Notes under the pieces: generated by a model
The model's input: the letters and a program-made list of their open reading frames with translations, nothing else
Told to the model about the DNA's origin: nothing
The model's database searches: none
NCBI GenBank assembly: GCA_965220325.1
Contig: OZ244821.1
Location: forward strand, 1,179,428-1,243,427
Reading direction: 5' to 3'
DNA from: Candidatus Poribacteria bacterium
Lineage (GTDB): Bacteria; Poribacteria; WGA-4E; WGA-3G
Length of the DNA: 64,000 bases
Position numbers and translations under genes: made by a program
Part shown: one piece after another, positions 8,332-12,590 of the stretch
Position numbering within the stretch: the first letter of the stretch is position 1
How the letters are laid out: every line of letters begins with the position of its first letter

Positions 8332-8751
8332 CTACCAACATTCTGTCTGTAGCGATTCGACTTCATCGAAATGTGTGTCTCGTGTGACGAGGATTAAATC
8401 GTGTTGCATAGCAATTGCAGCGATCCAAATATCATTATTCGGGATAGGTCTACCTTTCCTTCGCAGCCGTTCTTTGATGATTCCGTACCACTGTGCCGTT
8501 TCCAAATCACAAGAAAGAAAAATATATTCTTCTACGAATACATTGATTCTGTGAAGATTTTCTGTAACCTTATTCGATTTCTGTGCGCCGTAGTAGAGTT
8601 CACCAACTGTCGGAGAAGCTAAGAACAAGTTATTACCATTTTGCATTTTTTCTTCGATCGCCGTGTCACCGGTAAGCATTCCGATAACGATGTTGGTGTC
8701 CAAAAGATAGTTACCATTCTGATTCATCGACCTGTCCGCAGTCCTCTTCAA
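8332..8751 (-). CDS. vapC: type II toxin-antitoxin system VapC family toxin (PIN domain)
   Basis: N-terminal YLLDTNIVIGML is a PIN signature. Convergent with the E2 gene and overlaps the upstream antitoxin ORF. Confidence 0.7.
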   Translation of the reverse strand: MKRTADRSMNQNGNYLLDTNIVIGMLTGDTAIEEKMQNGNNLFLASPTVGELYYGAQKSNKVTENLHRINVFVEEYIFLSCDLETAQWYGIIKERLRRKGRPIPNNDIWIAAIAMQHDLILVTRDTHFDEVESLQTECW

Positions 8752-8941
8752 TTGCGCGCTTTATTTCTTCAAGATCCTCAGGTGGGAACAATCCGACAAA
8801 TTTAAGCAGTTCCTTACCTGGGATGCCTCTTATGGGTTCGCCTAAAAAAGAGAGGATAGAATTCAAAATCTGTTTCTGTTGCACAGGCGTAAGTTTGTCT
8901 AATCGCTGGACAATCTCTTGGATAGTTGTTGGGTTTTCCAT
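8711..8941 (-). CDS. putative antitoxin (DUF2281-like) of the VapC pair
   Basis: Start placed at MENPTTIQEIVQRLDKL, 9 nt downstream of a perfect AAGGAGGT Shine-Dalgarno. The longer track ORF to 9031 lacks an RBS. Sequence is similar to ORF 10540-10761. Confidence 0.5.
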   Translation of the reverse strand: MENPTTIQEIVQRLDKLTPVQQKQILNSILSFLGEPIRGIPGKELLKFVGLFPPEDLEEIKRAIEEDCGQVDESEW

Positions 8942-9099
8942 CGTTTTACCTCCTTTTTGCGTAAAACCAGAAACGTGATAGTAGGGGTTGGGTAACCCAA
9001 CCTCTCCTATTATACAACGAGAAAATGGCAATTTTCAAGGTTAAAAGGAGATTATATACAAGTTGAAAAACGAAAACGGTTTATGATATAATAAGAATC

Positions 9100-10503
9100 A
9101 TGAAAACACAAACGATGTATGAAAAAATATGGGAGGCGCATCTCGTGCGCGCTTCCGCTGATGAGGTGCCGATTCTTTATATCGACACGCATCTCGTCCA
9201 CGAAGTCACATCCCCGCAAGCGTTTGAGGGGCTGCGACTCAACAACCGAAAGGTACGCCGACCTGATCTGACCTTCGCAACGATGGATCACAACGTGCCG
9301 ACGACAGATAGATCGCTACCGATCACCGACCTGATCGCAGCGAAACAGATGGAGACGCTGGCAGAAAATTGCACTGAGTTTGACATCCCGCTCTACGACA
9401 TTGATAGTCCTGATCAAGGGATCGTCCATGTCATCGGACCGGAACTCGGTATCACACAACCCGGTAAGACCATCGTCTGCGGTGATAGCCATACCTCAAC
9501 GCACGGTGCACTCGGTGCACTCGCCTTCGGGATCGGCACGAGTGAGATTGAACATGTCCTCGCGACGCAGTGCCTCTTGCAACAGAAATCAGAGACATTC
9601 GAGATTCGGATTGATGGCACACTCCCCTACGGCGTGACCGCAAAAGACATTATCCTCTCGATTATCGGGCATATCGGTATCGACGGCGGCAACGGCGCTG
9701 TCGTCGAGTATACCGGTTCTGCGATCCGCGCTCTTAGTATTGAGGAGCGGATGACAGTTTGCAATATGTCGATTGAGGCAGGCGCACGCGCCGGTATGAT
9801 CGCACCCGACGATACGACCTATGAATATATCGCTGGCAAACGTTTCGCACCGAAAGGTGAAGATTTTGAGGCAGCGGTTGAACGTTGGAAGCAGCTACCG
9901 ACTGACGAAGGCGCGACTTATGACCGAACGCTACAACTCGATGCAGCTGACATCGCGCCGCAGGTGACATGGGGGACAAACCCCGGTATGGTCACCGATG
10001 TGACAGGACGTGTCCCGGACCCAGCAGCCATGACGACAACCGACGACAAGCGCGCCGCAGAACACGCTTTAGAATATATGGACCTCCAACCCGGCACCCC
10101 GATAACAGATATTCCTGTCGATAGGGTTTTCATCGGTAGCTGCACGAACTCTCGTATCAGCGATTTACGGGCTGCTGCGGAAGTCGCTAAAGGAAGGAAA
10201 GTCGCAGAGAACGTCAGCGCGATGGTCGTCCCGGGTTCGCAGGCGGTTAAACGTCAAGCGGAGGTGGAAGGGCTTGACAAGGTTTTTCAAGAAGCCGGCT
10301 TTGAATGGCGTGAAGCGGGTTGTAGTATGTGCCTCGGTATGAATCCTGATACCCTGATGCCGGGTCAACGTTGTGCCAGCACATCGAACCGGAATTTTGA
10401 AGGTAGACAGGGCAAAGGTGGACGCACGCATCTCGTCAGTCCACAGATGGCGGCTGCGACGGCGGTTACAGGCCGTTTCGTGGACATCCGAAAGTTTCAA
10501 TAG
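9100..10503 (+). CDS. leuC: 3-isopropylmalate dehydratase large subunit
   Basis: [10 protein letters not shown]...[21 protein letters not shown]...[10 protein letters not shown] closely matches LeuC. Confidence 0.9.
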
Positions 10504-10539
10504 GAAGGCTCAAAGGTTGGAAGATACTGGAAAGGAAAT

Positions 10540-10761
10540 GTGGAGGTAATAATGGAATCTACCATCATTGAAAAAATCAGGGAGCTTCCTCCAGAGCTCC
10601 AAGAAGAAGTCATTAATTTCATTGATTTCTTGCGAACAAAAGAGAGTTCAAAACGAAAAAAGAAGAAACCAAACTTGGAATGGATTGGCGGATTAAAAGC
10701 GTATCGCGACCAGTTTACGGCTCTCGAACTTCAGAAAAAAGCATCAGATTGGAGGGATTAG
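10540..10761 (+). CDS. orphan DUF2281-like antitoxin
   Basis: TIIEKIRELPPELQEEVINFIDFL parallels TIQEIVQRLDKLTPVQQKQILNSILSFL in the antitoxin at 8711-8941. Sits between leuC and leuD. Confidence 0.5.
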   Translation: MEVIMESTIIEKIRELPPELQEEVINFIDFLRTKESSKRKKKKPNLEWIGGLKAYRDQFTALELQKKASDWRD

Positions 10762-10856
10762 TGTACCTCGCGGATACCAATATTTTCCTTGAAGCCTTGT
10801 TGGAACAAGACCAAAACGAAAAGAACCCATTGAGGTGTTATAATGGAAGCGTTTAA
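10761..10856 (+). pseudogene. decayed VapC (PIN) toxin remnant, about 31 codons
   Basis: GTG-initiated [31 protein letters not shown] then a stop, which is only the PIN N-terminal strand. It overlaps the leuD start. Confidence 0.4.
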
Positions 10857-11433
10857 AGAACACGTTGGACGTGTTGTCCCACTTGACCGGATTAATGTTG
10901 ATACAGACCAGATCATCCCGAAGCAATTCTTGAAACGGATTGAACGGACAGGCTTCGGTGAATTTCTTTTTAACGATTGGCGTTACCTTGAAAATGGTGA
11001 TCCGAACCCAGAATTCGTGCTGAACTTCCCGCGCTATGCAGGTGCCAGTATTCTTGTTGCTGGTGCGAATTTCGGTTGCGGTAGCTCGCGTGAGCATGCC
11101 CCGTGGGCACTTCAGCAGTACGGGTTCAAAGCGATCCTCGCGCCATCGTTTGCGGACATTTTCCGCAATAACTGCTATAAGAACGGTATCCTTCCGATAA
11201 CGCTGCCTGCGGACGTTATCGCATCGCTCAGCCAAGAGGTACACGACACTGAGGGCTATCAATTGATGGTAGATTTGGAGGAGCAATCGGTGATCTGCGC
11301 TGACGGCACTGTACACACTTTTGAGATCGGGGATTTTGAGAAGCACTGCTTGCTGAATGGACTCGATGAAATCGGTTGGACTTTGCAATATGAAGCGGAC
11401 ATCGCAGCGTTTGAAAACCGAGGCAGCGCGTAA
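10843..11433 (+). CDS. leuD: 3-isopropylmalate dehydratase small subunit
   Basis: [49 protein letters not shown] closely matches LeuD. Confidence 0.9.
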
Positions 11434-11513
11434 AAAGTTCTGTGGAAACTGCAGATTTCTGAATCGCAGATATGCGTTGAAAAAGAAAAACGGCTTATAG
11501 TATAATAAAAATC

Positions 11514-12590
11514 ATGAACGTTTCAAACATAGATCTCTACCGTTTTTTTCCATCGCCGCTGGCACACTTTCCGGACAGAAGCGCGCGGTGGTTGTTTATA
11601 GACCCAGAGAACGTTAAAGGTTTAGTAGAACTCGTCGCGGGGCGTATCGCTACCCTATTGGATTTTAGCCAACTCACAGCCCTCAACCGGGACTTTCTGT
11701 CCGACACGCTCCGTGAACAGGAAGCCGACCTCGTTTTTAGTGTCCCGTTTCGCGATACCTCAGCAGACCAAGAACTGATCATCCACATCCTCATAGAGCA
11801 TCAATCTGGGGTGGACAAAGAGATGTGGTTTCGGTTTTTAGGATATATGTATAATCTCTGGGTTGCAGAACGTCAACGGTGGACAGCGGAGGAGGTTCCG
11901 AAAGAGGAACGCCGGTTGCTTCCGATTCTCCCGATCCTCTTTTACACCGGCGATCAGTCTTGGAGCCTCCCGCTGGCTCCAACTTCACTGATGGAAATCC
12001 CAGAGATACTTGCGCCGTTTGTTCCGACGTTTAACGTACTTTTGTTGGATGTCAAACAGACTGAACCAATCGAACTGACCAAAACAGGACATCCCCTCGG
12101 GTGGTTGCTTACGGTGCTCCAAAAGGAATTATCTTCAAAAGAAGAACTTACTGAGGCCTTAGTGACAGCACTCGATAGTTTAGATACGGTGCAAACCGAG
12201 CAGCATAGACGTGCGATGATATACTTGGCATCGCTCGTATATCATCGACGCCCCCCTGAAGAACGCGATACTTTGATAAAGGTCATAGACGCGCATTCGC
12301 GTGGAATGGAGGTAAAAACCATGTTTCAATCAATGGCAGAAGTCACATTTCAAAAAGGGATAGAGCAAGGGATAGAGCAAGGGATAGAGCAAGGGATAGA
12401 GCAAGGGGAAGCCCGCGCAAAACAGGTGGCACTCCTGAAACTCTTACACCACCAATTTCAGAGCATTCCCGAAACGTTAACAACATGGATTCAGACCCTC
12501 CACGATCCTGTTCATCTTGATAGGCTCTTTGAGAAGGTTCTGAACGCGGAAAACCTTCAAGATATTGACTGGGAGACCGATGACGCGTAA
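11514..12590 (+). CDS. Rpn family recombination-promoting nuclease / putative transposase (PD-(D/E)XK, YhgA-like)
   Basis: IIHILIEHQSGVDKEMWFRFLGYMYNLW core motif. C-terminal tandem (GIEQ)x4 encoded by 12-bp repeats at 12359-12406. Confidence 0.75.
   Translation: MNVSNIDLYRFFPSPLAHFPDRSARWLFIDPENVKGLVELVAGRIATLLDFSQLTALNRDFLSDTLREQEADLVFSVPFRDTSADQELIIHILIEHQSGVDKEMWFRFLGYMYNLWVAERQRWTAEEVPKEERRLLPILPILFYTGDQSWSLPLAPTSLMEIPEILAPFVPTFNVLLLDVKQTEPIELTKTGHPLGWLLTVLQKELSSKEELTEALVTALDSLDTVQTEQHRRAMIYLASLVYHRRPPEERDTLIKVIDAHSRGMEVKTMFQSMAEVTFQKGIEQGIEQGIEQGIEQGEARAKQVALLKLLHHQFQSIPETLTTWIQTLHDPVHLDRLFEKVLNAENLQDIDWETDDA

Follow-up and report, generated by a model that had tools for sequence, protein, structure and literature searches.

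Gene content of the leuC-leuD junction

The window analysed here is a stretch of 64,000 nucleotides from a Candidatus Poribacteria bacterium (assembly GCA_965220325.1, contig OZ244821.1, positions 1,179,428 to 1,243,427 of the forward strand), and coordinates are counted from its first letter. Between leuC and leuD, which encode the large and small subunits of 3-isopropylmalate dehydratase, it carries a DUF2281 antitoxin gene followed by the remains of a PIN toxin gene, the two parts of a toxin-antitoxin (TA) cassette that has lost its toxin. The left flank of the cassette is leuC (9100-10503; Pfam Aconitase, E = 2.4e-181) and the right flank is leuD (10843-11433; Pfam Aconitase_C, E = 1.7e-39). 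Both flanks and all features between them lie on the plus strand.

The antitoxin gene (10552-10761) is intact and encodes 69 amino acids, beginning MESTII and followed by a TAG stop. Its product matched Pfam DUF2281 (PF10047) with an E-value of 2.8e-16 and 60.3 bits, against a gathering threshold of 26.5, and aligned to profile positions 1-64 of 64. A preliminary description of this DNA had reported a 73-aa DUF2281-like antitoxin at 10540-10761. The family assignment was borne out and the start was corrected to the ATG at 10552, because a MES start is common to all 103 database homologs (51-99% identity; those that are named are nearly all from Candidatus Poribacteria). The GTG at 10540 falls within the ribosome-binding region of the gene, beside the Shine-Dalgarno sequence GGAGG (10542-10546). 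This region is part of the spacer between leuC and the antitoxin (10504-10551), the counterpart of which in close relatives is about 22-30 nt longer, as alignment showed.

The TAG of the antitoxin (10759-10761) shares a base with the GTG start (10761-10763) of a 31-codon open reading frame (ORF), giving the overlap TAGTG. This ORF (10761-10856) had been taken for the first 31 codons of a PIN toxin, which holds for only part of it. Codons 1 to ~19 (10761-10816, VYLADTNIFLEALLEQDQ) correspond to nt 1-56 of the PIN gene, as seen from BLASTP and from alignment to the relative L008. The 3' remnant of the toxin gene follows directly (10817-10843) and consists of its last eight codons and original stop, which read RKEPIEVL and stop in the original frame. 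Codons 20-31 of the present ORF come from the last 27 nt of the PIN gene, now read out of frame, and the first 14 nt of leuD. As first described, the ORF runs into the leuD start, and its TAA (10854-10856) lies 11 nt inside leuD.

The original PIN stop overlaps the leuD ATG (TAATG), and the arrangement in L008 is identical (TTATAATGG). Five nucleotides upstream of that ATG, a Shine-Dalgarno-like GAGGTG (10832-10837) was recognised from the sequence and from relatives. The site was once part of the PIN coding sequence (codons E-V), and the same layout is present in the toxin-intact relatives L008, L009, L170 and L171. In annotation terms, the 69-aa ORF counts as a real antitoxin gene that has been orphaned and the 31-codon ORF as a pseudogene remnant, part of which now acts as the putative leuD ribosome-binding site. 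Alone, the stub gave only E = 0.11 against Pfam PIN_3, so its identity as PIN rests on the relatives described below.

The cassette in relatives and the deletion in the window

Relatives were found by look-up of contigs encoding homologs and by a scan of one genome per species. The DUF2281 cassette, which many sponge-symbiont Poribacteria have at the leuC-leuD junction, was present there in ~46 species-level Poribacteria genomes. Of the species-representative Poribacteria genomes, 23 have the full order leuC-DUF2281-PIN-leuD with an intact PIN of 130-134 aa, as do several metagenome contigs. Relatives with antitoxins 87-99% identical to that of the window carry an intact 130-aa PIN at exactly the same junction, and the TAGTG overlap is present in all toxin-intact relatives. 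The relatives' PIN matched Pfam PF01850 over its full length (1-119/120, E = 3.6e-13). Its acidic residues D5, D38, D92, D95 and D113 are invariant, and its ratio of nonsynonymous to synonymous divergence (dN/dS) is 0.12.

The nearest outgroup found, L090 (LeuC 77%, LeuD 74%), has 25 nt between leuC and leuD and lacks the cassette, and the gap is 1-30 nt in most other phyla. Since the cassette is present across the clade and missing in the outgroup, its insertion is ancestral to this Poribacteria clade, and its linkage to one site inside the leuCD unit has lasted across the whole clade. The relatives and the outgroup, together with the alignment of the stub to both ends of the PIN gene described below, strongly support the earlier proposal that a TA module was inserted between leuC and leuD and later lost its toxin while the antitoxin was kept.

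Other occupants and contexts were also noted. In metagenome loci from other phyla (L096-L162), leuC-leuD gaps of 150-340 nt usually hold an entericidin-like lipoprotein ORF of ~40 aa (MKK..LAGCNTVQGVGKDVQKAGSAVEKAAK), so the junction has hosted small genes more than once. In a second type of Poribacteria locus (L006, L007, L049-L055), a DUF2281-PIN pair related to this one has PhyH / DUF815 ... GFO_IDH surroundings. Identity is 62-67% between its antitoxin and that of the window and ~72% between its PIN and the leuCD-type one; copies of this type are in other genomes and have in some cases lost the toxin (L007, L050, L052, L053). P0099 opens with the N-terminus of LeuD (MEAFKEHVG) and continues into antitoxin sequence, a sign that its locus has been rearranged. 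Outside a leu context, L065 and L073 have a near-full PIN match beside an antitoxin match that lacks the N-terminus.

The closest toxin-intact relative is L008, the antitoxin of which is 99% identical to that of the window. The N-terminus of the stub matched the 130-aa L008 PIN with a BLASTP E-value of 1e-9 (16 of 20 residues identical), well beyond chance, and ~53-54 of 56 nt were identical to the 5' end of that gene. In reference numbering the window keeps PIN nt 1-56 and nt 368-395, and the rest of the gene is gone. The distance from the antitoxin stop to leuD is 81 nt in the window and 391 nt in L008, which corresponds to a net deletion of 310 nt, not a multiple of three. The junction falls at ~10816/10817 (GACCAAAA joined to CGAAAAG), inside a short A-run, and the 5' and 3' PIN remnants are fused out of frame.

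The same junction, identical in sequence, occurs in L010 (JAJEET01, a different metagenome-assembled genome) and in L172 (Logan SRR33343647), so the deletion in the window is not an assembly artefact. That the stub arose by misassembly or chimera formation, or is a chance ORF merely resembling a PIN N-terminus, might have been suspected from its weak match to PIN_3 and from the tendency of mixed-strain metagenome assemblies to collapse indel variants. With two independent assemblies sharing the junction, both ends aligning to the intact L008 gene at the DNA level and the original frame recovered, we regard this explanation as hardly credible. As a separate observation, the leuD sequence of L010 ends past the shared junction at GAGGTGTTA joined to CTATAG (L010 3786-3925), and the contig stops 140 nt later. 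The sequence beyond GAGGTGTTA is not repeated in the window or other loci, and either an insertion or a chimera at the contig end is possible.

The age of the losses was judged from the antitoxin. An identical 69-aa antitoxin protein adjoins an intact PIN in L170 and L171 and is also found with at least four different dead toxin alleles, so the losses are very recent when measured by change in the antitoxin itself. Between the window and L010 the antitoxin differs by 11 synonymous, no missense and one nonsense change. Reading this pattern as purifying selection after toxin loss was considered and rejected, since a coding-like pattern of this kind is present in the stub as well, with one change at former codon positions 1 and 2 where ~8.8 would be expected if neutral (P = 0.0015). 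The shared deletion is therefore younger than most of the divergence between the window and L010, or else the allele was transferred.

Recurrent toxin loss, order of decay and the signals for leuD

The toxin was dead in 23 of the 46 species-level genomes and intact in the other 23. The two states interleave on a neighbour-joining tree of leuC and leuD, with a Dollo minimum of 21 losses, and the junction sequences, which require no tree, gave at least 25 structurally distinct dead toxin alleles. Because some alleles are shared between lineages, independent losses may be fewer than the Dollo figure, which presumes vertical inheritance; the tally of distinct alleles makes no such assumption.

Many dead alleles are internal deletions with microhomology at their ends; one such microhomology is a 9-nt repeat, ATACCAATA, located at PIN nt 13-21 and 288-296. 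The L036 allele is a GGAG-to-GGAG deletion between the two Shine-Dalgarno sites, that of L011 is a precise excision, and those of L014 and L043 are frameshifts. An in-frame deletion of 64 codons in L026 (3707-3904) leaves a 66-aa mini-PIN ORF, residues 1-30 joined to 95-130, without the central part of the PIN domain. In other dead alleles the PIN gene was replaced by hairpin elements resembling repetitive extragenic palindromes (REP) or miniature inverted-repeat transposable elements (MITE). At the former toxin site, L015 and L048 have the hairpin/repeat element G[GT]GCAATGAATTGC[CA]CTACTAC, L032 has a pair of GGCGCGTTTTGGAAAC, and L023 has a tandem repeat of AACTAATAACCAACA.

The antitoxin ORF was broken in 6 of the 23 toxin-dead genomes and in none of the 23 toxin-intact ones (Fisher P = 0.022); breakage was found only after toxin loss. 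Even the deletion allele of the window is affected, since in L010 it carries a TAG at antitoxin codon 61. The C-terminal residues S65, D66, W67 and R68 were altered in 9 of 19 orphans and in 1 of 24 paired copies (P = 0.002). From what is seen in other antitoxins they probably bind the toxin; their codons also overlap the Shine-Dalgarno sequence of the PIN gene. The single change S65L (TCA to TTA) was seen in five independent toxin-dead lineages (L014, L023, L034, L036/L005 and L043) and in 0 of 24 paired copies. In two of its carriers, L014 and L043, the PIN is only frameshifted. A mutational hotspot, relaxed constraint, or a change preceding toxin loss are all possible sources of this recurrence.

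Loss of the toxin first and of the antitoxin later is how chromosomal TA systems are known to erode. The tally for Photorhabdus was 185 pseudogenisations of the toxin alone and 8 of the antitoxin alone (Belot et al. 2026, PMC13617665), and the decay of ccdO157 in E. coli is a further example (Mine et al. 2009, cited in PMC2654758).

The transcription signals of the junction were examined in the window and three relatives. On the plus strand, a sigma-70-like promoter (9063-9092; TTGAAA-18-TATAAT, 11 of 12 consensus positions, TG-extended) ends 7 nt before the leuC ATG. It was rated strong and is the sole promoter-like site found upstream of the leuC-antitoxin-leuD unit. From the leuC stop to leuD, neither a sigma-70-like promoter nor an intrinsic terminator was found on the plus strand in the window, L008, L011 or L024, although the promoter search was a sigma-70 consensus scan only, which other promoter types would escape, so that its negative is weak. 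As no promoter of its own was recognised, the cassette is probably co-transcribed with leuC and leuD. The suggestion, made when the locus was first described, that a promoter or terminator in the cassette might affect leuD found no backing in these four sequences. The junction had no match to an Rfam family, and its RNA showed no folding beyond that of shuffled sequence (z = 0.41).

Two further promoter observations concern the surroundings. Near-identical sigma-70-like promoters (TTGAAA-18-TATAAT) are present at 9063-9102 and 11477-11516, each with the -10 box ending 7 nt before an ATG (TATAATAARAATCATG). One precedes leuC (9100) and the other an ORF at 11514-12590 that encodes a YhgA/Rpn-like putative transposase (PF04754, E = 6e-25); this spacing suggests that both genes may have leaderless mRNAs. 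A divergent promoter-like site lies at 9038-9009, by a VapBC pair that is found just upstream of leuC and is discussed below.

It may be asked whether the antitoxin ORF and the stub are kept because they now act in cis on the expression of leuD, by coupling translation or by way of the mRNA context, or whether the antitoxin has taken on the part of a leu-operon regulator. The cassette lies without a recognisable promoter inside the leuC-leuD unit, the leuD Shine-Dalgarno sequence is derived from PIN, and in the sub-lineage of the window the PIN stop overlaps the leuD ATG. The overlaps are chained: TAGTG is followed by a stub stop just inside leuD, and in L011 and L036 the antitoxin stop overlaps or abuts the leuD ATG. 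Moreover, every dead allele retains a Shine-Dalgarno sequence for leuD. Yet leuD is normal, and has a Shine-Dalgarno sequence of its own, in L061, L074, L076 and L079, where the antitoxin is frameshifted or truncated, and the outgroup and most bacteria do with a gap of 1-30 nt. The junction RNA, as noted, has no unusual fold. As for a regulator, the AlphaFold2 model of the antitoxin consists of four helices (pLDDT 78; pTM 0.37, which is low) without a recognisable DNA-binding fold, and it had no Foldseek/PDB match. A role of either kind is thus very unlikely.

Proposed history of the cassette and comparison with known systems

The antitoxin at the leuC-leuD junction is quite probably the recently orphaned partner of a VapBC-like type II TA cassette, with a DUF2281 antitoxin and a PIN toxin, that is eroding toxin first. 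The cassette would have been acquired between leuC and leuD by an ancestor of a clade of Candidatus Poribacteria and would since have been inherited mostly with the operon, with which it was probably transcribed. In the sub-lineage of the window, in which the toxin stop overlaps the leuD start, the net 310-nt deletion, at short A-run microhomology, removed toxin codons ~20 to ~122. By joining the PIN ends out of frame it destroyed a protein that was presumably toxic, while sparing the antitoxin and the putative leuD ribosome-binding site. A toxin-first order is what addiction logic predicts, in that loss of the toxin would be harmless and loss of the antitoxin first would not. The antitoxin is probably still made, would have nothing left to neutralise, and may be expected to decay as it has in several relatives. 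Loss of a toxin with retention of its antitoxin is an ordinary, already known step of cassette decay.

Several observations weigh against parts of this history. The intact orphan antitoxins are not relaxed overall, with a dN/dS of 0.13 compared with 0.11 for paired copies. In leave-one-out counts, deviations at otherwise invariant antitoxin positions averaged 0.70 in orphans and 0.63 in paired copies (P = 0.38). Overall relaxation of the orphans was thus tried by both measures and gave no signal, because most antitoxin divergence predates the toxin losses. In addition, the dead allele shared by L036 and L005 has persisted over ~5-6% flank divergence with three synonymous and no non-synonymous changes in the antitoxin, which makes some selection on orphan antitoxins possible. 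The broken antitoxin copies argue against a strong requirement, and the data fit either recency of loss or weak selection on the orphan.

Descent with the operon is likewise only part of the history, since silent-site divergence is lower in the cassette (dS 0.52-0.64) than in leuD (1.2-1.45) and some cassette alleles are common to different lineages. Identity between the window and its relatives is 91-100% in the cassette and 85-90% in leuC, and cassette GC content is 0.40 compared with 0.50-0.55 in the flanks (L008-L048 and window 10552-10843). L045 and L074 (also L060) have the same dead allele, in which a REP-like hairpin, GGTGCGGTTTCCTAACCGCACC, replaces the antitoxin C-terminus and PIN, and the flanks of L045 and of L074 are each closer to a toxin-intact genome. 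Such sequence patterns suggest that dead alleles may move between lineages by homologous recombination. Wholesale horizontal transfer was considered as the cause of the low silent divergence; against it, sister pairs agree between cassette and flank trees. The low divergence is therefore probably in part an effect of rate or composition and may in part reflect recombinational homogenisation, with some clear allele sharing in addition (L045/L074).

The persistence of intact orphans also bears on another explanation, in which the orphan antitoxin is selected as an anti-addiction factor that cross-neutralises a related PIN toxin encoded at another genomic site or brought in by a mobile element, an idea for orphan antitoxins that is discussed in PMC7354431. 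The antitoxin of the window has an intact ORF and a good Shine-Dalgarno sequence, and the ORF is intact in 17 of the 23 toxin-dead species genomes. The orphan dN/dS of 0.13 and the changes in the L036/L005 allele would fit such selection, no primary deletion reaches leftward into the antitoxin, and a related DUF2281-PIN locus does exist in another context in other Poribacteria (L006, L049-L055; PIN ~72% identical). A partner in reach of the antitoxin was nevertheless not found, though the search did not extend to the complete source genome, which leaves this negative incomplete. By tblastn the 64-kb window has no second copy of this antitoxin or toxin type, the chromosome-level genomes with orphans gave one match each in the genome scan, and the second locus type sits in other genomes. 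Relatives of the cassette were not found among IMG/VR viral contigs, PLSDB plasmids or INPHARED phages. Orphan ORFs are also broken in 6/23 genomes, among them L010 with the deletion allele of the window, and their putative toxin-binding C-terminus is altered in 9 of 19. That the antitoxin survived the deletion already follows from addiction logic and from how recent the event is, and we consider selection for anti-addiction improbable.

One specific candidate for cross-neutralisation had been the neighbouring VapBC pair, the antitoxin of which was described as a paralog of the DUF2281 protein. The pair is on the minus strand and consists of an intact VapC of 131 aa (8335-8727; Pfam PIN, E = 2.4e-12) and a VapB of 76 aa (8714-8941), within the region 8332-8941 of the earlier account. 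VapB had no DUF2281 or VapB family match, nor a match to any other family. Its proposed paralogy with the leuCD antitoxin was rejected: BLASTP gave E = 0.35 in the wrong register, hhalign gave a probability of 6%, and the two proteins share only a vague helix-LP-helix motif. The VapC is closest to models of tRNA-fMet-specific VapC (NF047863, E = 1.2e-25), under their cutoffs, and had no significant similarity to the lost PIN (E = 0.89). With neither toxins nor antitoxins related, the notion that the orphan neutralises this VapC found no support.

A further reading concerns the intact carriers. Lodging without its own promoter between co-transcribed subunit genes may tie TA synthesis to leu-operon expression, couple the toxin stop to the leuD start in one sub-lineage, and shield the cassette from deletions larger than ~0.7 kb. 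We hold this to be rather unlikely. If true, it would explain the long residence of the cassette (about half of the 46 species with an intact toxin under purifying selection, dN/dS 0.12) and its escape only by small internal toxin deletions; antitoxin-only 'escape alleles' might then spread between lineages by homologous recombination, and the PIN in intact carriers could be a growth brake linked to leucine supply.

The ancestral cassette, judged from its sequence, would have worked like a type II TA module of the VapBC kind. As in those modules, the antitoxin gene comes first in a two-gene layout with a TAGTG stop/start overlap, the toxin of the relatives is a full-length Pfam PIN protein with invariant acidic residues, and the antitoxin is a small helical DUF2281 protein with a sub-threshold match to NCBIfam TA_VapB (NF050009, 37.4 bits, cutoff 60). 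In loci from a wide range of phyla (L056-L085), PIN is the consistent partner of DUF2281. The cassette differs from VapBC modules in several respects. The toxin of the window is destroyed and has no complete PIN domain, so that the window copy is the remnant of a member. No promoter of its own was recognisable in the consensus scan, and the cassette lies inside the leuC-leuD unit with its toxin stop overlapping the leuD start. The antitoxin model has no recognisable DNA-binding fold, and the relatives' PIN scores far under the NCBIfam VapC cutoffs. A search for sequence relatives of the antitoxin or PIN in the PDB found none.

Anti-addiction has a known example in the chromosomal ccdA of Erwinia chrysanthemi, which neutralises the CcdB of the F plasmid (reviewed in PMC7354431). 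The window resembles that case in having an intact chromosomal antitoxin gene without its cognate toxin. Unlike it, no matching toxin was found in the window, the other genomes scanned, IMG/VR, PLSDB or INPHARED, and orphan copies decay in relatives.

A close parallel is TA erosion as described for Photorhabdus (PMC13617665) and for ccdO157 of E. coli (Mine et al. 2009, cited in PMC2654758). In both, as at leuCD, the toxin is inactivated first while the antitoxin persists and then decays, and many independent inactivations have occurred at one syntenic locus among related genomes. The leuCD cassette is unlike these systems in being embedded in an essential biosynthetic operon and conserved over ~46 species-level genomes, and its inactivation is mostly by microhomology-mediated internal deletion within the ~0.7 kb between two essential genes. 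The process is established, whereas the papers searched do not describe a TA module at the leuC-leuD junction, here a promoter-less cassette in the leuCD unit that is conserved in the clade and has undergone many independent toxin deletions. The main value of the locus is as a well-replicated example of TA erosion. One orthologous site in ~46 species, half of them toxin-intact, with at least 25 dead alleles provides many replicates in which the order of decay, the role of microhomology and the possible recombinational spread of dead alleles can be measured. It also bears on the view of Belot et al. (PMC13617665) that the linkage of TA systems to their neighbourhoods is short-lived, as the leuCD cassette has kept its one site in an essential operon throughout the clade.

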